DNA of 64,000 nt from an uncultured Eubacteriales bacterium (GTDB taxonomy: Bacteria; Acidobacteriota; Aminicenantia; Aminicenantales; UBA4085): the NCBI GenBank assembly GCA_964556755.1, contig CAZKXI010000013.1:2009-66008 (forward strand), read 5' to 3'. The notes beneath the pieces are model-generated. The model was not told the origin of the DNA. It was given only the letters and a program-made list of their open reading frames with translations, and did no database searches. Made by a program: the position numbers and the translations under genes. Positions 2,358-55,277 of the stretch are shown here, piece by piece. Numbering within the stretch: position 1 is the stretch's first letter; every line of letters begins with the position of its first letter.

Positions 2358-2966
2358 CTAGTATTTCCGCAGGACGCCGACCACACGGCCCACGACCTGC
2401 AGCTCGTCGACCTCGAAGGGCGCGAAGGAGGGGTTCTCGGGGACGAGAAGGGTCCGGCCGCCCTCGCGTCGAAGCCGCTTGAGGGTCACCGAGCCGTCCG
2501 CCAGCCGGGCCACGATCATCTCCCCCGGGCTGGCTGTGTCGGTCCGCTCCAGGAGGACGTGGTCGCCGTCGTCGATGTAGGCGTCGATCATGCTCTTGCC
2601 CTGGACCCGGATGCAGAACACGTTGCCCCGCCGGCGACCGATCATCCAGTCGGGAATGTCCATGGACTCGCCCGGAACGTCGAAGGCCTCCTGGGGCGAT
2701 CCGGCCGGGACCAAGCCGAGGAGCGGCACCCTCATCCGCCCGTCCGGACCGCCGGAGGGACGCCCGGCCAGCCGCAGCTCGCCTCGCTCGCGCCGCAGGC
2801 AGCCCTTGCGCTCCAGGCTGGCCAGATGCTTGAAGACGGCCGACGGGCTGGCGATGCGGAGGCCGGCCCCGATCTGGCGGATGGTCGGCCCGCTGCCGTG
2901 CTCAAGGACGAAGGACTCGACGAAGGCCAGGATGTCCCGCTGACGGCGGGTCAGCTCGCGGCGCAT
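2358..2966 (-). CDS. lexA: LexA repressor
   Basis: N-terminal LTRRQRDILAFV...GPTIRQIG...SPSAVFKHLASLERKG winged HTH; Ala-Gly cleavage site (LVPAG), Ser (GKSMID) and Lys (TLKR). Start placed at ATG 2966 because upstream ATGs fall within the promoter/TSS region. Confidence 0.93.
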   Translation of the reverse strand: MRRELTRRQRDILAFVESFVLEHGSGPTIRQIGAGLRIASPSAVFKHLASLERKGCLRRERGELRLAGRPSGGPDGRMRVPLLGLVPAGSPQEAFDVPGESMDIPDWMIGRRRGNVFCIRVQGKSMIDAYIDDGDHVLLERTDTASPGEMIVARLADGSVTLKRLRREGGRTLLVPENPSFAPFEVDELQVVGRVVGVLRKY

Positions 2967-2967
2967 G

Positions 2968-2990
2968 TTGTTCACCATTTTGTTCACCAT
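2968..2990. repeat. 11-bp perfect direct repeat TTGTTCACCAT x2 (period 12) just upstream of lexA; candidate operator
   Basis: Copies at 2968-2978 and 2980-2990, between the -10 box and the lexA ATG. Confidence 0.6.
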
Positions 2991-2994
2991 GTCC

Positions 2995-3023
2995 ATGATA
3001 GGCGCCGCCGGGCCTTTTGTCAA
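2995..3023 (-). promoter_or_regulatory. sigma70-type promoter of lexA-dinB-dnaE2
   Basis: TTGACA (3023-3018), 17 bp spacer, TATCAT (3000-2995) on the minus strand. Confidence 0.8.
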
Positions 3024-3073
3024 GAAGGTCAAGGGCTTGGAGATGAAAATTGATCTTCACCCCAAGTATCGAC

Positions 3074-3103
3074 TTGACAGATCCGCCCCCCACCATATAT
3101 AGT
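3074..3103 (+). promoter_or_regulatory. sigma70-type promoter of the PilZ/LuxD-like/MTase operon
   Basis: TTGACA (3074-3079), 18 bp spacer, TATAGT (3098-3103). The -10 lies within the inverted repeat CCCCAC-CATATATA-GTGGGG. Confidence 0.7.
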
Positions 3104-3221
3104 GGGGCAGGACCGTGTCTCGGATTTTTACATTTTCGAGGCCGCCGGACGACTAAACCTATCCAAGGGGGGCGTGGGAGGCGGAAAGGCGGAGATCATC
3201 GCCGAAAGACGAGGCCTGAGC

Positions 3222-6200
3222 ATGACGATGAAAGCGGCTGAAGCGGCCTCCGCCGACAAGCCGGTCTTGGTCATCGTCCACGGCGAGACCGTCAAGATCC
3301 GGGCTTTGAAGGCGGCCTTTGAGGCCGACTTCTCCGTCCAGGTCGCTTCCGGCGTCCGTGAAGCCATCGGCCTCCTCGGCCGTCTGCCGCGTCTCGACGC
3401 CCTGATCATCGATCGCCCCCTCTCGACCCTCGAGTCCGGGGCCGTTCTCCGCTATATCCAGGAGATGGTCGCCCAGCCCGAAGCCGTGGCCAAGCTGCTC
3501 CTCTGCGAGCGGCGGCCCGGCGGCGAGTCTTCGGCCCTGCCGGTGAACGGCTGGGTCGACGAGGTCCTCGAGGAGGATTTCGATCCCCAGCGCGTCCGCC
3601 GCCGCCTCCGCTCGCTGCTCATCCGCAAGACCCGCGAGAAGCGGGCCATCATGCGGACCCGCCTTGGCGGCGCTTCCGTCGAAGCCGACATCGGCCTGGT
3701 CGGCCGGGTGGCCGTCGACAACATCAGCGAGAACGGCATGTACGTCCGGGCCGTGCTGCCGCGCGACTACATCCACCCGATCACGATCCGGGCCGGCGCC
3801 TCGGCCCCCCTTCTGGCCACCGGGCGGGTCGTCCGCGTCGACGAACAGGCCGGCGGCACGGCCATCCAGTTCCTGCTCATGGAAGAGGACAGCCGGCGGT
3901 CCCTGCAGAAGCTCGTCTCCGAGGCCCGCATGGAGAAGGACCTGGCCGACCTGCGGGCCAAGTACCCCTTCCTCCGGCGCGACGGCATCGTCGCCTTCGA
4001 CGATCCGGACGGGATCGACCGCCTGCTGGCCGAGGCCTTCGCCGGCCCCGACACGGAGCTGACCGTCATCGGCGTCGGCCAGCGGTCGCCGATCGCCATG
4101 CGTCCGGCCGGCCTCGAGCCGCGGCGCCTGGTCCGCCTGGCCAGCGACGGCCTCGACGGCCGCTTCAAGACGGCCGACGCGGCCTTCGTCTCTTTCCAGT
4201 CCGGCTACGCCACCTACTCCTTCGAGACGGCGGTCTACCGCATCCCCGAAGGCGGACGGGCCCTGGAATGCCTCTATCCCCGCATCCTCTTCTATTCGGA
4301 GAAGCGGTCCTCCCGGCGGGCCGCCTCGGAGGAGGCCTTGGAGCTGGAGATCCTCCTGCCGCCGCCCTTCCAAAGGATCCTGCGCGGCCCGATCGCCGAC
4401 ATCAGCGCCGGCGGAGCCAGCTTCCTGACCGCCGACCGCGAGGTGGCTCTCCTGATCGGGACGCCGCTGCTGGCCGTCCGTATCCTGCAGGGCGGCCGGG
4501 TCCTGCGCGAGGTCCGGGGCGAGATCCGCAACGTCCTCAAGGTCGAGGACGGAAACGGCGGCCTGCTCCGCTACGGCGTCCAATTCGGCATCGGGCGGAT
4601 GGCCGTCCAGACCAGCGAGATGGCCGCCTTCGAATCCCTTCGCGAGAAGACCCGGACGCATGACACCGAGAAGCTGCGGACGGGCCCCCGCCGGCTCTCC
4701 GACTTGGCCGAGCTGGCCAAGCGCCCGCCCCAGGTGATCCGCTTGGAGAACGCGGCCGGCGAGGAGATCGTCGGCCTGCTCAACACCTCCTTCGAGCTGG
4801 GCGCCGATCCGGTCCCGGTCGTCCTCATCCCGCCGGCCTTCGGCAAGACCAAGGAGACCCTCTTCGCCCTGGCCGAGACGATCGTCGAGAACTTCTACCT
4901 GAAGGGCAAGCCCGTGGCCGTCCTGCGCTACGACGGCGTCCGCCGCAAGGGCGAGAGCTTCAAGGACCCGGACGCGCTGGAGCCCCCCTTCGAGATGATC
5001 CACGCCAGCGTCAGCCAGGGCGCCGACGACATCCGGGCCATCCTCGACTGGCTGGAGCTCAACCCGACCCTCAAGGCCAGCGCGGTGGTCCTGGTGACGT
5101 TCTCGCTCTCGGCCCTGGAGGCCCGGGTCGTCCTCCGCCAGGCCTCCTATCGCTCCAAGGTCGGGGGCTGGATCGCCTGCATGGGGACCATGGAGTTCCG
5201 CGAGCTGATGAGCCGGGTCAACTGCGGGCTGGACCTTCTGGAGCAGTATCAGCTGGGCATCGACCTGGGGGTGATCCCCATCCTGGGCAATCTGATCAGC
5301 ATGGTCCCCTATGCCTCGGACGTCGTCGCCAACCGGGTCGCCACCCTGGACCAGGCCCGGGAGGACATGGCCGCGATCGATCGGCCCGTGACCTGGATCT
5401 ACGGCGAGCACGACCATTGGGTCAAGGCGGAGTTCGTCCGCGACATCATGAGCGTCCAGGTCGACGCGCCGCGCGAGGTCATCTCGGCCCCCCTGGGCCA
5501 CAACGCCCGCACGTCGGAAGAGGCCCTGCAGCTGTTCGGCACCATCACCGACCAGGTCCACCGCATCCTGCACCGCGACTCCCTGCGGCCGGTCCCGCCC
5601 GACAAGGCCAACATGGAGATCATCCGCCGGGCCGAGAAGGACCGGCTGCCGGCCCGCCGGATCAAGGACCGCAAGGCCTACTGGCAGCGCTACCTGGTCG
5701 GCGAGGACCGGCTGCTGGGCTTCGACTGCATGGCCCTCTCGGACGACTACAAGCAGCTGATGGAGGACGAGCGCCTGGCCCTGGAGATCTCTCCCGGCGA
5801 CCGCTTCCTCGACCTGGGCGGCGGAACCGGCAACTTCGTCGAGCATTTGGCCGCCTCCGGCCAGCCGCTGCCCGCCGTGGTGACGATCGCCGACCTCATC
5901 CCCCAAGCCATGGCCCGGGCCTCGCGCAAGCTGCTGTCGCGCTTCCCCGGCCTGGCCCGCGACGGCCGCTTCGGGCTGCTGGCCCTGGACGCCGAATTGA
6001 ACCGCTTCCTGCCGGTGCGCCGCTTCCTGGCCGGCGAGATCGGGCGCTTCCGGACGCTGGCCGAGGAGCGCATCGAGAACCTGCCCCTGGCCTCGGCCGA
6101 GCGCATCGACGAAGCCTACTCCTCGCGCCTGCAGGCCATCCTGAGGGGCGAGGCGGTGACCCCCGCCGCCGACCGCTGGCTGAGGAGCCGCTTCGACGTG

Positions 6201-6761
6201 CCCGAGTACCGGGTCATCCTCGACTTCAACCGGGCCGTCCGCCTCCTGCTGGGCCGGGAGAAGGGCGACGGCGGATTCCGCCGGCTGGCCTTCCCCGGCG
6301 GTCTTCAGGCGGCGACCCACCTGCCGCTGCGGGCCGGCGTCTACAACAAGATCCTGATGAGCCTGGTCCTCTCCTATATCTTTGATCCGCTCGAGACCCT
6401 GGCCGAGGTCCGCCGCCTGATCGCCCCGGACGGGCGCCTGGTCCTCTCGACGATGCGCCCGGACGCCGACGCCTCGGGCCTCTACACCCGGCTGACGGCC
6501 AAGATCGAGGCCATGGCCGAGGAGGACTTCCCGGCCGACCGGCCCAAGGGCTTGCTGCTGGAATCCCTGCGGTCCTTCCTCAACGACGCCCAGGCCCTCG
6601 TGGAGCTCGAGGAAGCCGGGACCTTCGACTTCTTCGATCCCGAGAGACTGGCGGCTCTGCTTGAGGAAGCCGGCTGGGAGGCCGAGCCGCCCCGGCCCTC
6701 CTTCGGCCATCCCTCCCAGGGCTACCTCGTGGTGGCCCGCCCGAGGCCGGCCCATGGATAA
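3222..6761 (+). CDS. Multidomain protein: degenerate receiver + PilZ + PilZN + PilZ + LuxD-like alpha/beta-hydrolase (acyl-thioesterase/transferase) + class I SAM methyltransferase
   Basis: PilZ motifs RAIMR..NISENG and RSSRR..DISAGG; hydrolase motifs RYDGVRRKGES, TFSLSA (Ser), HDHWVK (Asp), LGHN (His); MTase motifs FLDLGGGTGNF and LVLSYIFDP..DGRLVLS. Start chosen after GAGG at 3211-3214. Confidence 0.8.
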   Translation: MTMKAAEAASADKPVLVIVHGETVKIRALKAAFEADFSVQVASGVREAIGLLGRLPRLDALIIDRPLSTLESGAVLRYIQEMVAQPEAVAKLLLCERRPGGESSALPVNGWVDEVLEEDFDPQRVRRRLRSLLIRKTREKRAIMRTRLGGASVEADIGLVGRVAVDNISENGMYVRAVLPRDYIHPITIRAGASAPLLATGRVVRVDEQAGGTAIQFLLMEEDSRRSLQKLVSEARMEKDLADLRAKYPFLRRDGIVAFDDPDGIDRLLAEAFAGPDTELTVIGVGQRSPIAMRPAGLEPRRLVRLASDGLDGRFKTADAAFVSFQSGYATYSFETAVYRIPEGGRALECLYPRILFYSEKRSSRRAASEEALELEILLPPPFQRILRGPIADISAGGASFLTADREVALLIGTPLLAVRILQGGRVLREVRGEIRNVLKVEDGNGGLLRYGVQFGIGRMAVQTSEMAAFESLREKTRTHDTEKLRTGPRRLSDLAELAKRPPQVIRLENAAGEEIVGLLNTSFELGADPVPVVLIPPAFGKTKETLFALAETIVENFYLKGKPVAVLRYDGVRRKGESFKDPDALEPPFEMIHASVSQGADDIRAILDWLELNPTLKASAVVLVTFSLSALEARVVLRQASYRSKVGGWIACMGTMEFRELMSRVNCGLDLLEQYQLGIDLGVIPILGNLISMVPYASDVVANRVATLDQAREDMAAIDRPVTWIYGEHDHWVKAEFVRDIMSVQVDAPREVISAPLGHNARTSEEALQLFGTITDQVHRILHRDSLRPVPPDKANMEIIRRAEKDRLPARRIKDRKAYWQRYLVGEDRLLGFDCMALSDDYKQLMEDERLALEISPGDRFLDLGGGTGNFVEHLAASGQPLPAVVTIADLIPQAMARASRKLLSRFPGLARDGRFGLLALDAELNRFLPVRRFLAGEIGRFRTLAEERIENLPLASAERIDEAYSSRLQAILRGEAVTPAADRWLRSRFDVPEYRVILDFNRAVRLLLGREKGDGGFRRLAFPGGLQAATHLPLRAGVYNKILMSLVLSYIFDPLETLAEVRRLIAPDGRLVLSTMRPDADASGLYTRLTAKIEAMAEEDFPADRPKGLLLESLRSFLNDAQALVELEEAGTFDFFDPERLAALLEEAGWEAEPPRPSFGHPSQGYLVVARPRPAHG

Positions 6762-9306
6762 GGGAAGCCGGTCCTTCGAGGAGCGGCTCAGCGCCGTCTA
6801 CGACTTGAAGCGGCGGGTCCGCCTGGTCATCCTCCTCAGCGCCATCCTCTACGTGTCCTTCCTGGCCCTGGACGGCATCTACGTCCCGGAGCATTTCGGG
6901 CTGTTCCTGGCCATCCGCCTGGTCGTCCTGGCCGCCCATGGCGCCCTCCTCCTGCTCGTCTCCCGGATGAAGACCAGCCGCGGCTGCGCCAACCTGGCCA
7001 TCGCCCTGACGGCCTTCGACGTGGCCGGCATCGCCATCATGATCCAGTTCATGGGCGGGTTCACGTCCGCTTACGTCCAGGGCCTCTACCTGATCATCAT
7101 GGGCATGGTCGTGGTCGTACCCCTGGCCTTCCGCGAGACGGTCGTCCTGTACGCCACCATCTGGGCTTCCTACGCCGTGCCCAGCTTCTTCAACATGGCC
7201 CGGACCGGCTTCGACTGGCGGACCGTCTTCGCCAACCTCTACTTCCTGACGGCCATCGTCCTGATCGGCGTCTTCGGCTCCTACATCATGGACGCGATCC
7301 GCCGCCGCGAGCTGCGCGGCCGGGTCCAGCTGGAGGAGACCTCGGCCAAGCTCCAGGAGTCCAACCTCAAGCTCATGGCCCTGGACGAGCTGAAGACCCA
7401 GTTCTTCGCCAACGTCAACCACGAGCTGCGCACGCCCCTGACCCTGATGCTGGCCCCCCTGGGGCCGATGATCGAGGGCGGCATGGGCCGGCTGACGGCC
7501 AAGCAGAAGGACACCCTGCTGACCATCCGCCAGAACGGCCTCAAGCTGCTCAAGCTGATCAACAACCTCCTCGACCTGACCAAGCTCGAGGCGGGCAAGA
7601 TGCGGCTGAAGATCAAGTCCGTCGAGTTCGTCGACTTCGTCAACAGCCTGCTGGCCTCGGTCAAGCCCCTGGCCGACCGCAAGTCGATCAAGCTCTACTT
7701 CCAGCACCCCTCGGTCGACCTGCCCCTGCATATCGACCCGGACCAGTTCGAGAAGATCGTCCTCAACCTGCTCTCCAACGCGGTCAAGTTCACGCCGGAG
7801 GGCGGCCGCATCACGGTCTACTTGGACGAGTCCGCCGAGGCCGTCCAGTTCACCGTCGAGGACACCGGCATCGGCATCCCGGCCGCCATGCTGGAGACGA
7901 TCTTCGACCGCTTCTCCCAGGTCGACGGCTCGCTGTCCCGGGCCCACGAGGGCTCCGGCATCGGGCTGTCGCTGGTCCGCGAGCTGGTCCAGCTGCACGG
8001 CGGGCGGGTCCGGGCCGAGAGCGAGATCGGCAAGGGCTCCCGCTTCATCGTCGACATCCTCAAGGGCGACGCCCACTACGGCGAAGAGGTCCTGGACCGG
8101 CGGGTCAGCGACCTGCCCGTGGCCCTCAAGAAGAGGTCCAGCGACGCCGGCCAGCCGCGGGTCCAGGACATCGTCACCGACTTCCGCAAGCTCCAGCTGA
8201 TGGACCTGGAGCGGGAGGAGCTGCGCCCCGGGGAGCAGGCCGCCCCGCGCCGGCACGACAACAACCTGGTCGTGGTCGACGACAATCCCGAAGTCCTCAA
8301 GCTGATGAAGCTTCTGCTGGAGGACGAGTTCGACCTTCACCTGGCCGCCTCCGGCGAGGAGGCCCTGGTCCTGATCCGGGACAAGATGCCGGACGTGGTC
8401 ATCAGCGACGTCATGATGCCGGGCATGGACGGCCACGCCCTGACCCGGCGGATCAAGACCGACGACGCCCTCCGCCACATCCCGGTCATCCTGGTCACGG
8501 CCCGCTCGGGGGCCGAGATGCTCAACGAGGGCATCGAGGCGGGGGCCGACGACTACCTGCCCAAGCCCTTCGACTCCGTCGAGCTGAAGGCCCGCATCCG
8601 CAGCCTGCTCCGGATGCGGCGGGCCGAGGCCGATCTGGCCCTGGCCAACCGCAATCTCAAGATGCGGACATCCGACCTGGTCGAGCGGCAGAGGGACCTG
8701 TTCCTGGCCATGGTCCGCTCGCTCGTCTCGGCCCTGGAGGCCAAGGACAAGTACACCCGCGACCACTCCAGCCGGGTGACGGAGCTGTCGCTGCGCATCG
8801 CCCGCTCCATGAAGCTCGACGAGAGGGAGCTGAACGACCTGGAGATGGCGGCCATCCTGCACGACGTCGGCAAGATCGCCATCCCGGAGCGGATCCTGCA
8901 CAAGAAGTCGCCCCTGACCGAGGAGGAGTTCGCCGTCATCCGCCAGCACCCCGTCATCGGCGAGAACATCCTCAAGCCCGTCGTCGAGCTGCGGCAGATC
9001 GCCCGCATCGTCCGCTCCCACCACGAGCGCTACGACGGCCGGGGCTATCCCGACGGGCTGAAAGGCCAGGCCATCCCGGTTGCGGCCCGGATCATGGCCG
9101 TGGCCGACTCCTACGACGCCATCACCTCGAGCCGCCCCTACCGCGACTCGGAGTCGCACAACTACGCCCTCAAGGAAGTCATCAAGTGCTCCGGCCTCCA
9201 GTTCGATCCGGAGGCCGTGGAGCACTTCATCGAGGCCCTCAAGACCGGCCCCCTGCCGGCCGGCCCGTCCGAGACGGCCCCCTTGTTCGGGAATCTGCCG
9301 GACTGA
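6754..9306 (+). CDS. Membrane sensor hybrid histidine kinase fused to receiver and HD-GYP c-di-GMP phosphodiesterase
   Basis: About six hydrophobic helices; H-box FFANVNHELRTPL; NLLSNAVKFT, DTGIGI, GSGIGL; receiver VVDD/SDVMMP/KPF; HD-GYP motifs HDVGK, HHERYDGRGYP, VADSYDA, RPYR. Overlaps the upstream stop (ATGGATAA). Confidence 0.93.
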   Translation: MDKGSRSFEERLSAVYDLKRRVRLVILLSAILYVSFLALDGIYVPEHFGLFLAIRLVVLAAHGALLLLVSRMKTSRGCANLAIALTAFDVAGIAIMIQFMGGFTSAYVQGLYLIIMGMVVVVPLAFRETVVLYATIWASYAVPSFFNMARTGFDWRTVFANLYFLTAIVLIGVFGSYIMDAIRRRELRGRVQLEETSAKLQESNLKLMALDELKTQFFANVNHELRTPLTLMLAPLGPMIEGGMGRLTAKQKDTLLTIRQNGLKLLKLINNLLDLTKLEAGKMRLKIKSVEFVDFVNSLLASVKPLADRKSIKLYFQHPSVDLPLHIDPDQFEKIVLNLLSNAVKFTPEGGRITVYLDESAEAVQFTVEDTGIGIPAAMLETIFDRFSQVDGSLSRAHEGSGIGLSLVRELVQLHGGRVRAESEIGKGSRFIVDILKGDAHYGEEVLDRRVSDLPVALKKRSSDAGQPRVQDIVTDFRKLQLMDLEREELRPGEQAAPRRHDNNLVVVDDNPEVLKLMKLLLEDEFDLHLAASGEEALVLIRDKMPDVVISDVMMPGMDGHALTRRIKTDDALRHIPVILVTARSGAEMLNEGIEAGADDYLPKPFDSVELKARIRSLLRMRRAEADLALANRNLKMRTSDLVERQRDLFLAMVRSLVSALEAKDKYTRDHSSRVTELSLRIARSMKLDERELNDLEMAAILHDVGKIAIPERILHKKSPLTEEEFAVIRQHPVIGENILKPVVELRQIARIVRSHHERYDGRGYPDGLKGQAIPVAARIMAVADSYDAITSSRPYRDSESHNYALKEVIKCSGLQFDPEAVEHFIEALKTGPLPAGPSETAPLFGNLPD

Positions 9307-24661: not shown

Positions 24662-26365
24662 ATGCCCAACATCGGCGCCTATGACCAAGCGTATGCGGAT
24701 TTCTCCTGGACGATCGCGGAGAAAGAGCTCGAATACGAGCCCGGCTCGGTTCTCAACATCGGCTGGCACTGCTCCGATCGAATCTGCCTGAAAGGCCAGG
24801 GCGGCAAGACCGCTCTTCTCTGGGAGGGCCTGGGAGGAGCCGAGAAGCGATTCACCTACAACGATATCCGGGTGGCCAGCAACACCATCGGCCACTTTCT
24901 GCGGGGTCTCGGGATCACGGCCGGCGACAGGGTCTGCCTGTTCATGGACAAGGTGCCGGAGCTCTACCTGGGCGTCCTGGGCATCCTCAAGATCGGGGCC
25001 ATCGGCCAGCCGCTCTTCTCCGCCTTCGGCGACGAATCGCTGTTCGTCCGCCTGGAAAACGCCGGCACCCGGGCCATCATCACCCAGCGCAAGCATGCCC
25101 CCAAGGTCCGCAAGATCCTGGACAAGCTGCCAGCCCTGGAGCACATCATCATCGTCGACCACGACGGCAAGGCGCCTCTGCAAAGGAAGGAGGTCGCCTT
25201 CAGCCTGGACAAGGCCGCCCCCGTCGAGTCGATCGATATCCACCCGACCCTGGCCGAGTCCCCCTCCCTGCTCCACTACACCTCCGGGACCACCGGCCTG
25301 CCCAAGGGCGTCAAGCACGTCCACTACTCCCTCGTCTCGCAGTACCTGACGGCCAAGTGGGTCCTGGACGTTCGTCCCGACGACATCTATTGGTGCACGG
25401 CCGACCCCGGCTGGGTCACCGGCACCTCCTACGGCATCCTCGGGCCCTGGAGCCTGGGCGTCACCCAATGCGTCATGGACACCGGCTTCTCGGCCGAGGC
25501 CTGGTACAAGTTCATCGAGAAGCACAAGGTCACGGTCTGGTATTCCGCCCCGACCGCGATCCGCTCCCTGATGAAGGCCGGCGACGAGATCATCAAGAAA
25601 TACGACCTGTCGAGCCTGCGGCTCCTGGCCAGCGTCGGCGAGCCTCTCAACTCCGAGGCCGTGCTGTGGTCGGAGCGGGTCTTCGGCCGGGCCTTCCTGG
25701 ACACCTACTTTCAGACCGAGACCGGCTCCATCATGATCACCAACTTCCCGGGCCTGAAGATCAAGCCCGGCTCCATGGGCAAGCCCTTCCCCGGCATCAC
25801 CGCCACCGTCCTCGACCCCAAGACCTACGAGCCCTACCCCGAGCCCGGCAAGATCGGACTCATCGCCATCCAGCCCGGCTGGCCGGCCATGATGCGGACC
25901 TACTGGAACAACGAGGAGACCTACCGCAAGAAGTTCCGGAACGGCTGGTACATGACCGGCGACCGGGCCTCTCTGGATAAAGAAGGCTACTTCTGGTTCA
26001 TCGGCCGCGACGACGACATCATCAACACCGGCGGCCACCTGGTCAGCCCCTTCGAGGTCGAGTCGGCCCTCATTGAGCACCCGGCCGTGGCCGAGTCGGC
26101 CGTGGTCAGCAAGCCCGACCCGATCAACATGGAGGTCGTCAAGGCCTTCGTCACCCTCAAGCCCGGCTTCACCGGCAGCGCCGACCTGGACCTGGAGATC
26201 ATGAACTTTATCCGCAAGAAGCTGTCGCCGCTGGCCATGCCTCAGGAGATCGAGTTCGCCCCTTCGCTGCCCAAGACCCGCAGCGGCAAGATCATGCGCC
26301 GGATCCTGAAGGCCAAGGAGTGGGGCGAGGAGATCGGCGACACGTCCACCCTGGAAGACGATTGA
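24662..26365 (+). CDS. acsA: AMP-forming acetate/short-chain acid-CoA (or ACP) ligase, AcsA-like
   Basis: YTSGTTGLPKG, WCTADPGWVTG, SVGEPLN, QTETG, GRDDD, LPKTRSGKIMRR. Confidence 0.85.
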   Translation: MPNIGAYDQAYADFSWTIAEKELEYEPGSVLNIGWHCSDRICLKGQGGKTALLWEGLGGAEKRFTYNDIRVASNTIGHFLRGLGITAGDRVCLFMDKVPELYLGVLGILKIGAIGQPLFSAFGDESLFVRLENAGTRAIITQRKHAPKVRKILDKLPALEHIIIVDHDGKAPLQRKEVAFSLDKAAPVESIDIHPTLAESPSLLHYTSGTTGLPKGVKHVHYSLVSQYLTAKWVLDVRPDDIYWCTADPGWVTGTSYGILGPWSLGVTQCVMDTGFSAEAWYKFIEKHKVTVWYSAPTAIRSLMKAGDEIIKKYDLSSLRLLASVGEPLNSEAVLWSERVFGRAFLDTYFQTETGSIMITNFPGLKIKPGSMGKPFPGITATVLDPKTYEPYPEPGKIGLIAIQPGWPAMMRTYWNNEETYRKKFRNGWYMTGDRASLDKEGYFWFIGRDDDIINTGGHLVSPFEVESALIEHPAVAESAVVSKPDPINMEVVKAFVTLKPGFTGSADLDLEIMNFIRKKLSPLAMPQEIEFAPSLPKTRSGKIMRRILKAKEWGEEIGDTSTLEDD

Positions 26366-34347: not shown

Positions 34348-35102
34348 CCTTCCGCGTCCGCGGCCTCCGCTTCCGCCGGCCCCGCTTCGAGCTGGACGTG
34401 CCGGCCCTGACGATCCCGGCCGGGCGGCTGACCGCCGTCGTCGGCCCCAATGGGGCCGGCAAGACGACCCTGCTCCGCTGCCTGGCCGGCCTGCTGCCCG
34501 TGCCGCCCGGAGTCGTGAGCCTGGGCGGCGAGGACCTGGCTGGACTGGCCGCGGGCCCGCGAGCGCGCCGGCTGGCGTTCGTCCCGCAGGAGCATGCCGC
34601 GGCCTTCAACTACGCCGTCCGCGACTTCATCCTTATGGGCCGGGCGCCCTATCTGGGGCTCTTCGGCTCGCCCGGCGCCGACGACGAGGTCCGGGCGGCC
34701 GAAGCCCTGGCCTTCGTCGGCTTGCCGGGCTACGCCGATCGCCCCTTCCTCGAGATGAGCAGCGGCGAGCGGCGCCTGATCCTCATCGCCAGGGCCTTGG
34801 CCCAAGACACACCCGCCCTTCTTCTGGACGAGCCGGCGACCTTCCTGGACCCGCGCCACGAGTCCGAGGTGATGGGCCTTCTTGGCCGCCTGGTGGCGGA
34901 GCGGGGCAAGACCGTCCTGGTCACGCTGCACAATCTGGACATGGCGGCCCGCCTGGCCGATGTCTTGGTCGTCCTGCGATCCGGCCGGATCGCCGCCTGC
35001 GGCCCGCCCCGCGAGGTCCTCAGCGAGGATCTCCTGGCCCGGGTCTACGAGATCCCGATGCGGATCCTGGACCACGAGGGCCTCACCTTCATCGTCCGCT
35101 GA
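34344..35102 (+). CDS. Iron-chelate/cobalamin ABC transporter ATP-binding protein
   Basis: GPNGAGKTT, MSSGERR, LLLDEP, VTLH; GTGA overlap with the permease. Confidence 0.9.
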   Translation: MTFRVRGLRFRRPRFELDVPALTIPAGRLTAVVGPNGAGKTTLLRCLAGLLPVPPGVVSLGGEDLAGLAAGPRARRLAFVPQEHAAAFNYAVRDFILMGRAPYLGLFGSPGADDEVRAAEALAFVGLPGYADRPFLEMSSGERRLILIARALAQDTPALLLDEPATFLDPRHESEVMGLLGRLVAERGKTVLVTLHNLDMAARLADVLVVLRSGRIAACGPPREVLSEDLLARVYEIPMRILDHEGLTFIVR

Positions 35103-35232
35103 AGCCACGCGGGCCGGAGGGGCTTGTCTTTCCCCCCCGATCGTCTATAATGGTCGCGTTCCGAACAGCGGAACCCCCCCCTCCCGCCAGTGTCCTTCAC
35201 GGAGTGACGGGTCCGCCGCCGCAAGGAGACCC

Positions 35233-37026
35233 ATGAGATCGAACAGGCTGAAGATACGCTACCTCAACGGCAGCCGGCTCTACCACGCCTTCCTGGCCGG
35301 AGGGGACGCGGTCATCAACGATCAAGTCTTCCTCAATCGCATCAACGTCTTCCCTGTTCCCGACGGGGACACGGGGACCAATATGGCTTCCACCTTTCGG
35401 GCCATCGCCGAAGGGGCCCGGTCCGGCCGCTCGATCCGGGAGACTCTCCGCTCCATCGCCGACGCCGCCCTGCACGGCGCCCAGGGCAATTCGGGCCTGA
35501 TCCTGGCCCAGTTCCTCTACGGACTCAGCCGCGAAGTCGGCCACGAATGGAGGCTGACGACCAAGTCTTTCGGCGAGTCCGTACGGAGGGCCGCCCAGCA
35601 CGCCGCCCGGGCCATCCTCCACCCGGTCGAAGGGACGATGATCACGGTCATCCGCGACTGGGCCGAGTCCGTGTACCAGAAGCGGCTGCACACGGCCGAC
35701 TTCGAGGAGCTCCTGGCCGAAGCCCTGCCCGCGGCCCGCCGGTCGCTCCGCGAGACGCCCCGCAAGCTGGCCGTCCTGGCCAGGGCCGGCGTCGTGGACG
35801 CGGGGGCCAAGGGATTCGTCGACTTCTTGGAAGGCATCCTCCAGTTCATCAAGCGCGGGCGCCTGCGCCGCGATCCCCAGCCCGGACCGGCCTGGACACC
35901 GGCCGAGGCCAAGACGCCGGCCCGCGACAAGTCCCTCCACAACCGGTACTGCGCCGAGGCTCTCCTGGCCGGCCAGGATCTGTCGCCCGAGGCCGTCCGG
36001 GCCGTCGTCGACCGCTTCGGGGATTCGGCCGTCGTGGCCGGCTCGGAGGACCGCATCCGCGTTCACGTCCACACCAACGAGCCGGACGGGCTCTTCGACC
36101 AGCTCAAGGATCTCGGCGCCATCCGCCAGATCAAGGTCGATGACATGCGCAAGCAGCACGAAGCCGCCTGGGCCCCCCGGTCCAGGGTGGCCGTCATCAC
36201 GGACTCGGCCTGCGACCTGCCGCAGGAGATCATGGACGAGCGGCAGATCCACTTCGTGCCCATGTCGATCCAATGGGGCGAGCAGCTCTTCCTGGACAAG
36301 CTGACCATGAAGGCGGACCGGTTCTACGACCGGCTGCAGGCGGAGGACGTCCAGCCGACGTCGGCCGTCCCGGCCCTCAAGTCCTTCCAGAACGCCCTCT
36401 CCTACCTGGCCGGCCACTACGACTCGATCATCGCCGTCAGCCTGTCCTCCGGCCTGTCGGGCGTCCATGACGCCTTCCGCAAGGCCGCGGAAAGCCTGCC
36501 GGGCCGCAGGATCAGCGTCTTCGACTCGCGCTCCATCTCGGCCGGCGAGGGACTGATCGTGGCGCGGGCCACCGAGATGGCCCTGGCCGGCGAGGGGCAC
36601 GAGACGATCGCCCGCGGCATCGAGTCCTGGACGGCCAAGACCCACCTGCTCATCGACGTCAGGACGCTCAAGCCTCTCATTCGCGGCGGGCGCGTCAGCC
36701 CGGCCAAGGGCTTCCTGGCCAGACTGCTCCACATCCTGCCTCTCCTGTCGCTCGACGGGAGCGGCAAGGCGGCTCCCTTCGGCAAGGCCTTCAGCCGCCG
36801 GGGCGCCATGGCCGGCATCCTGGCTCGAGTCGCCGAGCTGACGGGCCGGGACAAGCTGTGGAATTACGCGGTCGTTCACGCCAAGAATCCCGGCCGGGCG
36901 AGCGCCTACCGGGACAGGCTGACGGCCTTGCTCGGCCGACCGCCGGCTTACATCATGGATGTCTCCCCCGTCATCGGGGTCCACTGCGGCGTCGGCGCCG
37001 TGGCCGTCGCCCTGCTGATGGAATAA
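35233..37026 (+). CDS. DAK2 (FakA-like) + DegV (FakB-like) fatty-acid kinase fusion
   Basis: NVFPVPDGDTGTNM, GAQGNSG, VEGTMITV, VVDAGA, VHVHTNEP; DegV VITDSACDL, TSAVP, SSGLSG, GVHCG. Confidence 0.9.
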   Translation: MRSNRLKIRYLNGSRLYHAFLAGGDAVINDQVFLNRINVFPVPDGDTGTNMASTFRAIAEGARSGRSIRETLRSIADAALHGAQGNSGLILAQFLYGLSREVGHEWRLTTKSFGESVRRAAQHAARAILHPVEGTMITVIRDWAESVYQKRLHTADFEELLAEALPAARRSLRETPRKLAVLARAGVVDAGAKGFVDFLEGILQFIKRGRLRRDPQPGPAWTPAEAKTPARDKSLHNRYCAEALLAGQDLSPEAVRAVVDRFGDSAVVAGSEDRIRVHVHTNEPDGLFDQLKDLGAIRQIKVDDMRKQHEAAWAPRSRVAVITDSACDLPQEIMDERQIHFVPMSIQWGEQLFLDKLTMKADRFYDRLQAEDVQPTSAVPALKSFQNALSYLAGHYDSIIAVSLSSGLSGVHDAFRKAAESLPGRRISVFDSRSISAGEGLIVARATEMALAGEGHETIARGIESWTAKTHLLIDVRTLKPLIRGGRVSPAKGFLARLLHILPLLSLDGSGKAAPFGKAFSRRGAMAGILARVAELTGRDKLWNYAVVHAKNPGRASAYRDRLTALLGRPPAYIMDVSPVIGVHCGVGAVAVALLME

Positions 37027-52256: not shown

Positions 52257-55200
52257 TCATTCCAGGATCAAGAGCCAGCCTCTGCCGGGCTCGAGCGGGA
52301 TCGGCTCGCCCGGGGCGAAGGAGGCGGCCAGCTGGAAGTCGGGGATCTCCGGGGCTCGCAGGCGGGCCCGCCGGGGATCGAGGCCGAGCGCCTTCCAGTC
52401 GATCTTCAAGGCGGTCCGGACCGGCCCCCTTGCCCAGGAGGCCAGGGCGATCAGGCTCCGGCCTTTCCGGCGGTAGACGGTCGCCTTGACCCCCGGGTCC
52501 TCCGGTCGGACCGGGCAGCCGTCCGACCACCAGCCGAGCATCTCGGCTTGGGAGATGCCGAAGGCGTCCCAGACCTTCCACAGCCGTGAGGGGTCGGGGC
52601 CGGACCAGGGCTTGCGGTTGGTCATGCCGAAGACCATGCCCCGCCAGGGATTGCCGCCGTCCTGGAGCATCTCGCCCATCAGGCCGAAGGGGATGCCCGA
52701 GACCTCGACCAGCCAGAAGTCGGCCGGCGAGCCCTCATAGTCGAAGTACTCGCCGAACCACAGCCGGTCGAGATAGGGAAAGTGCTCCAGATACAGGGTG
52801 GCGCTGGAGACGAAGCCGTCGCGCGGATTGTACTGGTTGGCCGAGTGCAGGTCGATGAGAGCGGCCGGGCGGTTGCGGTCCAGGACCTTGCGGACCCGCT
52901 TCATGGTCGTCCGGTCGAAGGCCACGTCGTCCAGGTAGAGCCCGTCGATTCCGACATGGCGGGCCAGCCAGTCGAGCCCCTCGATGTAGTAGTTGTGCCA
53001 GCGCGACATGCCGCTGTTGATGACGGCGGCGTCCCGCAGCTCGGGGACGTACCAGGCCGGGATGTAGTCCGAGCCCAGGTGCTCCTGCAGCCAGGACGAC
53101 CCTCCCCCGGGGCCGGCGGTGAAGATCTCGTGGCCCAGGCTGCGCAGGGCGAAGATCTCCGGGGCCCGGTTGGAGAGCTCCCGGACGGTGTCATAGATCT
53201 TGACCCGGAGGCCGAGGCGATGGGCCTCGTCGATGTAGGCCTTCATCGCCGGAACCCGCAGGAAGGGATAGTTGATGTAGGGATTGACCGCGTTGGCGTG
53301 GTGGACGTTGACCACGTTGGCCCCTTCGGCGGCCGCTTCGGACGGCGGCTTGGGAGCATGGAGGAAGCGGGTGGCGAAGTGCCCGGCCGGATCGATGGGC
53401 TTAAAAGGGGTCAGGTGGAGGATGAAGTCGAAGTGGAGGTCCCGGCCGGGCTCGAGCCGCCTCTCCCCTCCCGAGGCGGCATAGAGCACGACGCCGGGCC
53501 GGGTCCGGCCGACCCGGACGGTCCCCTTGCCGTCATTCCACCAGGAGGGAGGCAGGGCCAGCGGCTTGCTCTGGTAGAAGTTGGTGTTGAGAGGGCGGCT
53601 GTAGTTTTCGGCCCGCAGGCCGACCTGCATCCCGGCGTCGACGTCGCCCAGCCAGAGCGAGTCCTGGTTCTTCTTCTGGTCCCAAGACCATTGGAGCTCG
53701 GACGGGCGCAATCCGCCCTTGGCGCCGAGGCCCATCATGTACCGGGCCGCGCTCTCGGCCCAAGGGATCTCCAAGCGGATGTCCTTGACCGCCCGGGGCG
53801 ATTCGGCCGCCAGCCGGACCTTGAACTCCAGGAAGCCGTCCGCCTCCATCGCTCCCCGGCCCTCCAGCCGCAAGCCCGCCTCCGAAGACCGGAAGGTCCA
53901 TTCGACCCGGCCCGGCGACCGGCGGGTGAAAGCCATGCCCTCCGGCTTCCAAGCCAGCCGCTCGCCCTTCTCGTCCAGGACGACCAGGGCCATGGGCCCG
54001 GCCAAGACGTCCTTGGCTTTGCCGCTCAGGCCCGTGACTTCGGGCCGGAAGTAGCTGCGGATCGCCTCCGGCAAGCCGTCCAGCCCCAAGCTCACCTCCC
54101 GGCCCAGGCAGCCTACGGTTCGGTCGTTGACGGTCAGGGGCGTGAACGGCTTGACCACCTCGTCATCCATGGCCAGAGTCGAGTCGAGCCAGCGGAGGCG
54201 CGACAGCCGCTCCGGCTCCGAGTCGCCGCCGTCGGGCAGGACGGCCGGCGAGACCGTCAGCGCCAAACGAAAGGCCTGTGACGGGGTCCCCTCGGCGCGC
54301 ACGGACACCTGGCCCTCGTAGCGCCCGGGCGGGAGATCCGCCGGCACCTGGACGCCGCACCAGAGCGCCTGGACCTTGCCGGGCTCCACCGATACGGTCT
54401 TGATCAGCCGCGATCCGTCCCAGTCGACGCCGCCCAGGTTGAAGCAGCGCAGGGCCGAGGCGGGAATCTCGCCTCCTTCCGGCGAGCGGAGAGGGGCGAA
54501 TGTGACGGATACCTTGTCCAGCCGGGAGCCGCAGGCCCAAAGGCCGATCTGGAAGGCGTAGAACTCTCCCTTGGCGGCTTGGCCGGCGAAGACCGCCCGA
54601 GGGCCTTCTTCGGTCCAGCGCAGGGGCACGTCGTCGGTCATGCGGATGGAGAGGCTCCGATCCTCCGGAAAGAGGAGGAAGGGGCGGTCGCTCCACCGCT
54701 CGCGCAAGGCCTTCGTCTCCTCGGGCGAGGCGATGCGCTCCATCTCGGTGAAGGCGTCAAACGGATCGAACGACTCGATCGGCCCCGCCTCCGCCTCGGG
54801 CAAGCCGGCGCCCCCCCCCGCCGCCGTCAAGCCGTGGCGGGCCAGCCAAGCGTCCTCGGCTGTCCGCTCCGGCTCGAGGTAGCGGACCTGGGGGTAGTTG
54901 CGGCTCCCGCCTGAGCGGTAGGGCATGTAGTAGAAGTAGTAAGTCCCGGCGCCCGCGGACGGCTGAAAGACGAGCTCCCCCTCCGTCCTCTCGATCCGGA
55001 CCGGCCAGACGTTGGCCACCCGCCGGCCGGAAGCGTCGGTGACGATAACGGCCTTCTTCTCGGGCGACGGATCGCGCCTCCGCCAGGGGATCTTGACCCG
55101 GACGGCATCCGCCGCGGCCGCGACCCGGACCACGGCCCGGTGGCCGCCCAAGAGTCCGGCATCCCAAGCGGGCCCGGCGGCCGCCGGCCCGGACCCCTGG

Positions 55201-55277
55201 CCGAGCTCCGGGCCGGGCCCGGCGGCCAGCCCGGCCAGGAGAGCGATCACCCCGATCAAGCGTGGGCTCATCATCAT
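52257..55277 (-). CDS. Exported DUF6067 / GH123-like putative glycoside hydrolase
   Basis: Signal peptide; GEFYAFQIG, NIHHA-like NVHHAN..NPYINYPF, IDGLYLDD, WFGEYFD, GEMLQDGGNPWRGM. Confidence 0.65.
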   Translation of the reverse strand: MMMSPRLIGVIALLAGLAAGPGPELGQGSGPAAAGPAWDAGLLGGHRAVVRVAAAADAVRVKIPWRRRDPSPEKKAVIVTDASGRRVANVWPVRIERTEGELVFQPSAGAGTYYFYYMPYRSGGSRNYPQVRYLEPERTAEDAWLARHGLTAAGGGAGLPEAEAGPIESFDPFDAFTEMERIASPEETKALRERWSDRPFLLFPEDRSLSIRMTDDVPLRWTEEGPRAVFAGQAAKGEFYAFQIGLWACGSRLDKVSVTFAPLRSPEGGEIPASALRCFNLGGVDWDGSRLIKTVSVEPGKVQALWCGVQVPADLPPGRYEGQVSVRAEGTPSQAFRLALTVSPAVLPDGGDSEPERLSRLRWLDSTLAMDDEVVKPFTPLTVNDRTVGCLGREVSLGLDGLPEAIRSYFRPEVTGLSGKAKDVLAGPMALVVLDEKGERLAWKPEGMAFTRRSPGRVEWTFRSSEAGLRLEGRGAMEADGFLEFKVRLAAESPRAVKDIRLEIPWAESAARYMMGLGAKGGLRPSELQWSWDQKKNQDSLWLGDVDAGMQVGLRAENYSRPLNTNFYQSKPLALPPSWWNDGKGTVRVGRTRPGVVLYAASGGERRLEPGRDLHFDFILHLTPFKPIDPAGHFATRFLHAPKPPSEAAAEGANVVNVHHANAVNPYINYPFLRVPAMKAYIDEAHRLGLRVKIYDTVRELSNRAPEIFALRSLGHEIFTAGPGGGSSWLQEHLGSDYIPAWYVPELRDAAVINSGMSRWHNYYIEGLDWLARHVGIDGLYLDDVAFDRTTMKRVRKVLDRNRPAALIDLHSANQYNPRDGFVSSATLYLEHFPYLDRLWFGEYFDYEGSPADFWLVEVSGIPFGLMGEMLQDGGNPWRGMVFGMTNRKPWSGPDPSRLWKVWDAFGISQAEMLGWWSDGCPVRPEDPGVKATVYRRKGRSLIALASWARGPVRTALKIDWKALGLDPRRARLRAPEIPDFQLAASFAPGEPIPLEPGRGWLLILE

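Follow-up and report, generated by a model that had tools for sequence, protein, structure and literature searches.

In a 64,000-nucleotide stretch of DNA from an uncultured bacterium of the Aminicenantes (assembly GCA_964556755.1, contig CAZKXI010000013.1, positions 2,009 to 66,008 of the forward strand; at its full length referred to below as the window), one long gene encodes a protein of 1179 amino acids, here named PHM, in which a predicted LuxD-like alpha/beta-hydrolase domain is fused to an S-adenosylmethionine (SAM)-dependent methyltransferase and preceded by two PilZ domains. The original prediction for this region had concentrated on the hydrolase, described as a LuxD-like acyl-thioesterase domain with an intact catalytic triad in a non-luminescent context. 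That assignment is supported by our analysis, which shows in addition that the hydrolase and the methyltransferase together form a conserved cassette, the real functional unit, which had been missed. Judged from sequence comparison and structural modelling, the most likely role of PHM is to synthesise or remodel a fatty-acyl compound, controlled by a second messenger.

LuxD is the myristoyl-acyl carrier protein (ACP) thioesterase, or acyl transferase, of the lux operon. The LuxD-like domain of PHM and its conserved motifs are located as follows, with residue numbers, here and below, counted from the GTG codon at 3102:

4707 to 5591, plus strand: LuxD-like alpha/beta-hydrolase domain, supported by Pfam, Protein Data Bank (PDB) profiles, models, Foldseek and conservation
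4830 to 4856, plus strand: motif PPAFGKTKE
4926 to 4958, plus strand: motif RYDGxxxxGES
5100 to 5114, plus strand: nucleophile elbow F-S668-L-S-A
5103 to 5105, plus strand: codon TCG of the nucleophile Ser668, which aligns with LuxD S114
5406 to 5423, plus strand: motif EHD771HWV
5412 to 5414, plus strand: codon GAC of the triad residue Asp771, which aligns with LuxD D211
5493 to 5507, plus strand: motif LGH800NA
5499 to 5501, plus strand: codon CAC of the triad residue His800, which aligns with LuxD H241

In Pfam, the sole alpha/beta-hydrolase family matched by PHM is PF02273 (Acyl_transf_2), which has a gathering score of 20.3 bits; the complete protein scores 21.1 bits and the isolated domain 25.2–25.4 bits (E 1.2e-5), the match covering profile positions 52–225 of 294. 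When 13 diverse relatives were scanned singly, 11 matched PF02273, the best with an E-value of 4e-13; every other hydrolase family matched five of them at most, FSH1 being the second most frequent. Predicted membership of PF02273 is, on these scores, marginal for PHM itself and robust across its family. Searches of the PDB followed a similar course. With the single sequence, LuxD of Vibrio harveyi (1THT) already ranked first, at a non-significant E-value of 0.23; a profile of 15 orthologues gave 6.8e-4, and a profile of 80 family members gave 4.2e-7, with 1THT the only hydrolase among the 60 best matches. Finally, a profile of the 13 diverse domains reached 2.5e-12 (49 bits, LuxD residues 35–252), in an alignment that takes in the cap region and all three triad residues, the next hydrolase matching at 1.9e-7 and over the N-terminal half only. 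Such a strengthening of the match as the profile broadens is what is expected of true remote homology.

The predicted structures gave the same answer. AlphaFold models were obtained for the hydrolase domain (predicted local distance difference test, pLDDT, 80) and for the hydrolase and methyltransferase together (pLDDT 95; predicted template modelling score, pTM, 0.92), and in Foldseek searches, which yielded more than 1000 matches to alpha/beta-hydrolase folds, both models have 1THT as their first match (E about 3e-14; template modelling score 0.75, or 0.80–0.81 on the target, over all of LuxD). The Pfam and Foldseek searches proposed as checks in the original prediction therefore return the LuxD family and 1THT, respectively, as top match, and generic esterases, the outcome named there as contradictory, do not take the first place. 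By four independent comparisons (Pfam, PDB profile, fold and residue alignment), LuxD is thus the predicted closest relative of the domain. The domain is nevertheless neither a LuxD orthologue nor a bioluminescence gene: the NCBIfam LuxD equivalog NF052253 scores 14.6 bits (E 0.016) against a cut-off of 420, and no luciferase, LuxC or LuxE family occurs among the 25 window genes scanned with Pfam, PHM included, some 19 smaller open reading frames lying outside that scan. This supports the earlier statements that the window carries no lux genes and that the domain is likely repurposed, and we regard the domain as a remote relative of LuxD, repurposed outside luminescence.

All of the residue strings cited earlier for the domain (VVLIPPAFGK, RYDGVRRKGES, TFSLSALEA, HDHWVK and LGHN) are present in the PHM reading frame, and the codons proposed for the triad, at 5103, 5412 and 5499, are indeed those of S668, D771 and H800. 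The bounds given for the domain, 4735–5570, were slightly narrow compared with those of about 4707–5591 that we assign. The LuxD strings quoted for comparison in the original prediction agree with the 1THT chain except for one or two residues, the chain having ARVA where ARIA was given and NDDWVK in place of DDSWVK. Alignment of that chain to the family model places S668 opposite S114 and D771 opposite D211, and in the 13-domain profile alignment H800 lies opposite H241. Of the two serines in F-S-L-S-A, S668 is the first and occupies the position of LuxD S114; the elbow reads T-F-S-L-S beside A-A-S-L-S in 1THT; the usual glycines are absent from both, as had been noted of this non-GxSxG elbow, and the family consensus is [TS]-F-S-x-[AS].

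The complete triad is retained in every one of the 30 full-length orthologues, the most distant of which are 50% identical. Among 148 more distant cluster representatives, counting those with a residue at the column, serine, aspartate and histidine are kept in 144 of 146, 147 of 147 and 143 of 145, respectively, and the same degree of conservation is seen in PP(A/G)(W/F)GK.KE, which comes after strand 3, in R(F/Y)DG....GES and in the D.W that follows the acid residue. In the models, with domain numbering, S133 follows strand 124–133, D236 follows strand 228–233 and H265 follows strand 256–261, which places the triad at the ends of strands 5, 7 and 8, as is canonical for alpha/beta-hydrolases. 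The near-invariance of triad and motifs argues against a dead domain, and the domain is a real and probably active serine hydrolase.

The case for a cassette comes from the family at large. In an exhaustive search with a profile of the hydrolase domain, 502 clusters (at 50% identity) had E-values below 1e-3, 247 of them below 1e-30. Among the best 148 of the 502, for which the architecture was inspected, essentially every non-fragment carries hydrolase, linker and methyltransferase in that order; the N-termini vary and contain PilZ, which precedes the cassette. An 80-sequence alignment, reduced from the 148-sequence set, was used for structure prediction, and the hydrolase and methyltransferase were modelled as one rigid body, with the pLDDT and pTM given above. 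Because the domains co-occur in this way and form a rigid body in the model, we take the hydrolase-methyltransferase cassette, under predicted PilZ control, to be the functional unit.

The family was seen in the Aminicenantes and other Acidobacteriota, in Anaerolineales (Chloroflexota), in Spirochaetia and in Candidatus Anammoxibacter, an anammox planctomycete (Planctomycetota); it is present in at least 80 species of Aminicenantes and in several other uncultured phyla. The locus closest to that of the window is in the metagenome-assembled genome UBA4085, with 92% identity in the domain. A scan of contigs with the patterns PPAFGKTK and RVNCGLDLL retrieved Aminicenantes orthologues only and informs synteny, not taxonomic breadth. 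One locus with an Aminicenantes-type gene pair and 66% domain identity (L057, DAINMX010000002.1) is labelled Myxococcota, which could be due to mis-binning or gene transfer. Word-indexed homologue searches, whether started from the domain by itself or from a diverse alignment, added no new lineages and brought up mainly frameshifted fragments. In the databases, family members are named only as "PilZ domain-containing protein" or "UbiE methylase"; we found no description of the PilZ-hydrolase-methyltransferase architecture in the literature, and nothing relevant on PilZ with LuxD or on PilZ in Aminicenantes.

In PHM itself the domains are ordered REC-like, PilZ, PilZN-like, PilZ, LuxD-like hydrolase, helical linker and SAM-methyltransferase, and those flanking the hydrolase are placed as follows:

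3234 to 3626, plus strand: degenerate REC-like domain; PF00072 is recorded for some orthologues
3627 to 3956, plus strand: PilZ domain 1, from Pfam and TIGR02266
3642 to 3656 and 3720 to 3737, plus strand: PilZ 1 motifs R181xxxR185 and N207xSxxG212
3957 to 4286, plus strand: PilZN-like (YcgR N-terminal-like) domain between the two PilZ domains
4287 to 4631, plus strand: PilZ domain 2, from Pfam
4305 to 4319 and 4398 to 4415, plus strand: PilZ 2 motifs R402xxxR406 and D433xSxxG438, conserved family-wide
5592 to 5771, plus strand: conserved helical linker or methyltransferase N-terminal extension with YWxxYLxG, in nearly all family members
5772 to 6758, plus strand: class I SAM-dependent methyltransferase, from Pfam, profiles and model
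5808 to 5834, plus strand: methyltransferase motif I, LDLGGGTGN
about 5985 to 6341, plus strand: helical insertion of about 120 amino acids in the methyltransferase
6456 to 6479, plus strand: conserved methyltransferase motif RPDADxS

Both PilZ domains (PF07238) contain RxxxR and (D/N)xSxxG, and these motifs are conserved in the orthologues. The PilZN-like domain lying between them was recognised from YcgR structures, matched by the family profile with an E-value of about 5e-7, and from a local domain profile that recurs in relatives. The REC-like domain retains the phospho-acceptor D104 and has an acidic pocket of H-G-E instead of D-D; 8 of the 30 orthologues have G or N in place of the acceptor, and the domain may be a pseudo-receiver. 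For the methyltransferase, Methyltransf_23, 11 and 12 score above their cut-offs, motif I (D-L-G-x-G-x-G) is invariant in the family and the fold is modelled with pLDDT above 90. When the two-domain model was submitted to Foldseek the top 50 matches were hydrolases only, with no methyltransferase neighbours among the matches listed. The helical insertion sits between strands 422–426 and 546–552 of the cassette model and is a candidate substrate-binding lid. In relatives of about 820 amino acids, the methyltransferase is matched by the domain profile as two separate segments on either side of this region, where these proteins probably have a shorter or different insertion.

Directly downstream of the PHM gene lies a conserved gene, its predicted operon partner:

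6754 to 9306, plus strand: gene for a membrane (MASE8-like) sensor histidine kinase-REC-HD-GYP cyclic di-GMP (c-di-GMP) phosphodiesterase

The two genes overlap by 8 nt at the PHM stop codon (CATGGATAA), and no promoter-like site occurs between them. The MASE8 match in the N-terminal 200 amino acids of the kinase is full-length and, at 19 bits, sub-threshold. Of 80 Aminicenantes loci, 72 have a kinase-REC-HD-GYP gene immediately after the cassette gene, and the remaining eight have little or no downstream DNA.

In other lineages, for which the neighbourhoods of twelve loci were compared, a sensor kinase, mostly MASE8-kinase-REC-HD-GYP, is adjacent in most, and further genes of lipid metabolism appear. 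An AMP-binding enzyme resembling long-chain-fatty-acid ligases is found together with an ACP at six loci (L081, L082, L085, L089, L091 and L092), a B12-binding radical-SAM gene at four (L082, L089, L091 and L092), an MMPL transporter at two (L086 and L090), an acyl-CoA dehydrogenase at one (L087), and a FadL-like porin with a fatty-acid desaturase at another (L093). A cluster of five genes, encoding cassette, AMP-ligase, ACP, B12 radical-SAM protein and MASE8 kinase-REC-HD-GYP, recurs in L089 (1842–10863), L092 (7001–16081) and L091 (3927–12882); the models nearest to its radical-SAM protein are HpnJ and a lipid-biosynthesis radical-SAM family, and the cluster looks like a small lipid-modification pathway. 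At L086 (9611–11713) and L090 (6592–8778), where the cassette proteins are of the type with about 820 amino acids, the MMPL transporter gene lies between the cassette and kinase genes, a placement that suggests export of a lipid product. A search for the pair of ligase and carrier in the window and in the 80 Aminicenantes loci brought up only an unrelated fatty-acid-CoA ligase, encoded in the window at 24662–26365, with 23% identity.

On balance we favour the reading that PHM is a c-di-GMP-controlled acyl-carrier thioesterase and methyltransferase yielding a methylated lipid, because the hydrolase is homologous to an acyl-ACP thioesterase, the neighbours include ligase, carrier and lipid genes, and a PilZ module is present; the carrier-protein thioesterase DcsB, which is among the next-best structural relatives, also counts for an acyl-carrier substrate. 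In this scheme c-di-GMP would bind both PilZ domains, whose canonical motifs are intact, and its binding would gate the cassette. Ser668, activated by His800 and Asp771, would then take a fatty-acyl chain from an acyl-S-carrier or other thioester or ester, a step suggested by the LuxD homology and by the neighbours in other phyla, and the chain would subsequently be released or transferred. The fused methyltransferase may methylate the product, most simply to a fatty-acid methyl ester and otherwise to another methylated lipid, and this is the least certain of the steps. The kinase-REC-HD-GYP protein, whose gene is consistently paired with the cassette, could react to a cue from the membrane or from a lipid by lowering c-di-GMP, and so close a regulatory loop.

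Several points weigh against this assignment. Fold matches to generic GxSxG esterases, lipases and DcsB lie within about one log of the E-value for 1THT, such that the fold alone does not discriminate between them; the sequence profiles do. Moreover, the fold leaves the substrate unfixed, and identity to LuxD is only about 17%. The methyltransferase has only generic matches of the Methyltransf_11/23 type, so that O-, N- and C-methylation cannot be distinguished and the order of the reactions is a guess. The pair of AMP-ligase and carrier protein was not found in the window or in the 80 Aminicenantes loci, and the association with acyl carriers is borrowed from distant relatives. We also found no biochemistry for any member of the family in the literature searched.

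A more far-reaching proposal, which we consider rather improbable in its entirety, is that PHM, gated by c-di-GMP, synthesises a lipid signal, either diffusible or located in the membrane, such as a fatty-acid methyl ester, possibly branched, that is released from an ACP, and that the kinase-HD-GYP protein perceives this lipid and degrades c-di-GMP. The two genes would then constitute a self-contained feedback circuit, from second messenger to lipid signal, that Aminicenantes, Chloroflexota, Spirochaetia and anammox Planctomycetota have in common.

The pairing of a methyltransferase with a serine esterase could also be read as a cycle, since it is the exact enzyme pair that formation and removal of a methyl ester would need, and antagonistic activities are often fused in signalling proteins. 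The methyltransferase would esterify a carboxyl group on a carrier-bound acid, lipid or protein, the hydrolase would be the opposing methylesterase, and c-di-GMP would set the balance of a reversible switch. One fragment in the family carries the automated name "pimeloyl-ACP methyl ester carboxylesterase", and the neighbouring acyl-AMP ligase and carrier would be compatible, too, with a dicarboxylate bound to a carrier, as in the synthesis of biotin. We nevertheless judge such a cycle unlikely: the BioC equivalog TIGR02072 scores 16.1 bits against a cut-off of 185, neither CheR (PF01739) nor CheB (PF01339) was found in PHM in Pfam and NCBIfam scans, and the specific relative of the hydrolase, cap included, is the acyl-ACP thioesterase LuxD and not BioH or a methylesterase.

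Remodelling of membrane lipids, with the hydrolase acting as a (lyso)phospholipase or acyltransferase on glycerolipids, the methyltransferase modifying head group or chain and the sensor kinase reporting the state of the membrane, appears quite unlikely. No membrane segment is predicted in the modelled cassette, and the dedicated ligase and carrier neighbours favour a soluble, carrier-bound substrate. Phosphoethanolamine or phosphatidylethanolamine N-methyltransferases and enzymes resembling cyclopropane-fatty-acid synthase are among the better matches of the methyltransferase, although these matches are generic to class I and no specific family scores above its cut-off. Also consistent with a role in the membrane are monoacylglycerol and other lipases among the fold matches, the membrane-embedded MASE8-like domain of the sensor kinase, and the MMPL and desaturase genes that adjoin the cassette in other phyla.

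Finally, a generic esterase with an incidental likeness to LuxD, or a catalytically dead scaffold, is very improbable: the many GxSxG esterases close behind LuxD in Foldseek, the weak single-sequence match to 1THT and a PF02273 score for PHM barely above cut-off over only part of the profile would agree with it, but the LuxD match grows with profile diversity, spans the triad and is stronger than that of the next hydrolase by five orders of magnitude, and the triad and oxyanion-region motifs are near-invariant over some 150 clusters.

Returning to the gene predicted to encode the c-di-GMP-controlled thioesterase-methyltransferase, its limits and its 5' region can be described as follows:

3222 to 6761, plus strand: multidomain gene for the 1179-amino-acid protein PHM, supported by domain scans, orthologues and codon-position GC
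3074 to 3103, plus strand: sigma-70-like promoter upstream of the PHM gene, TTGACA-18-TATAGT, with 11 of 12 matches

From start to stop the open reading frame extends over 3102–6761 on the plus strand; its GC content at third codon positions (GC3) is 0.93, and its codon-position pattern, which passes the filter GC3 > GC1 > GC2, is that of a genuine gene. An antisense reading frame of 1198 amino acids spanning nearly the whole gene (3159–6755, minus strand) fails this filter and was dismissed as an artefact of high GC. The true start is almost certainly the ATG at 3222 and not the GTG at 3102, because full-length orthologues have about 1179 amino acids and align over 100% of that version, and because the promoter-like site at 3074–3103 overlaps the GTG. 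The 30 full-length orthologues, with identities of 50–89%, are all of about 1180 amino acids. Two promoter-like sites were observed in the region upstream of the gene against 0.1 expected from shuffles. Directly after the promoter, at 3103–3122 on the plus strand, there is a terminator-like hairpin with a T-run, and the leader extends over about 115 nt to the ATG at 3222; an Rfam scan of the 5' region at 2950–3300 detected no riboswitch or other known RNA family.

Divergent from the PHM gene is a lexA-dinB (Pol IV) pair, at 2358–3032 and 988–2271 on the minus strand, a synteny common to six close relatives only. At 3023–2995 the minus strand has a promoter-like site, close to consensus, that falls within the start-to-stop lexA reading frame, and the actual start of lexA is therefore probably downstream of the TTG at 3032. 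Elsewhere in the window, a protein of 714 amino acids (34882–37026, plus strand) combines Dak2, a FakA middle domain and a C-terminal DegV domain and is apparently a fusion of FakA-like and FakB-like fatty-acid kinase subunits, and a protein of 1006 amino acids (52257–55277, minus strand) matches Pfam GH123_N from end to end with 1349 bits and resembles glycoside hydrolase family 123.

The outputs of PilZ proteins known so far concern mostly motility, exopolysaccharide synthesis and transcription. If the reading that we favour is true, the direct outputs of c-di-GMP would extend, through a PilZ-controlled acyl-thioesterase-methyltransferase, to the chemistry of lipids or small molecules. With about 500 clusters the family is large and yet uncharacterised, and its tightly conserved kinase-HD-GYP partner offers a testable signalling loop. 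The family shows that the LuxD fold occurs, outside luminescence, far more widely than the lux operon, and a natural fusion of thioesterase and methyltransferase would be of interest for the production of fatty-acid methyl esters.

Among known systems, LuxD of V. harveyi shares with the PHM hydrolase the alpha/beta-hydrolase fold, a similar cap and an aligned Ser-Asp-His triad, as well as the glycine-free elbow, D-x-W-V after the acid residue and the RYD....G.S motif. It is a free-standing protein of the lux operon, whereas the hydrolase of PHM is a domain within 1179 amino acids, fused to methyltransferase and PilZ, with lexA, dinB and a kinase-REC-HD-GYP gene as neighbours and an uncultured member of the Aminicenantes as host. 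The second-best group of fold matches comprises DcsB (7D78/7D79) and other relatives of FSH1. Trans-acting thioesterases of the alpha/beta-hydrolase type such as DcsB act on acyl-S-carrier proteins, but their matches are weaker, with root-mean-square deviations of 5–9 Å, and they are fungal polyketide enzymes without a methyltransferase or PilZ fusion. BioC, a malonyl-ACP O-methyltransferase, and BioH, a pimeloyl-ACP methyl ester esterase, also combine a class I methyltransferase with an alpha/beta-hydrolase esterase and act on carrier-bound acyl chains, but BioH is a GxSxG esterase, and PHM occurs without a biotin context and is proposed to be controlled by c-di-GMP.

With respect to regulation, BcsA and YcgR resemble PHM in having PilZ, with RxxxR and D/NxSxxG, beside an output module, and the order of PilZN and PilZ recalls YcgR, whereas the output of PHM is the hydrolase-methyltransferase cassette, a combination that is not mentioned in a survey of PilZ proteins (bioRxiv 10.1101/814665). 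The phcBSR quorum-sensing system of Ralstonia, in which the SAM-methyltransferase PhcB makes as signal a fatty-acid methyl ester, methyl 3-hydroxymyristate or 3-hydroxypalmitate, and the adjacent histidine kinase PhcS senses it (PMC8578825, PMC13320629), presents a further parallel. As in the operon of the PHM cassette and its kinase, a methyltransferase gene stands beside that of a sensor kinase, although the analogy is one of functional logic only. To our knowledge PhcB has not been reported with PilZ or LuxD-like domains, and the kinase partnered with PHM differs from PhcS in carrying an HD-GYP output that acts on c-di-GMP.

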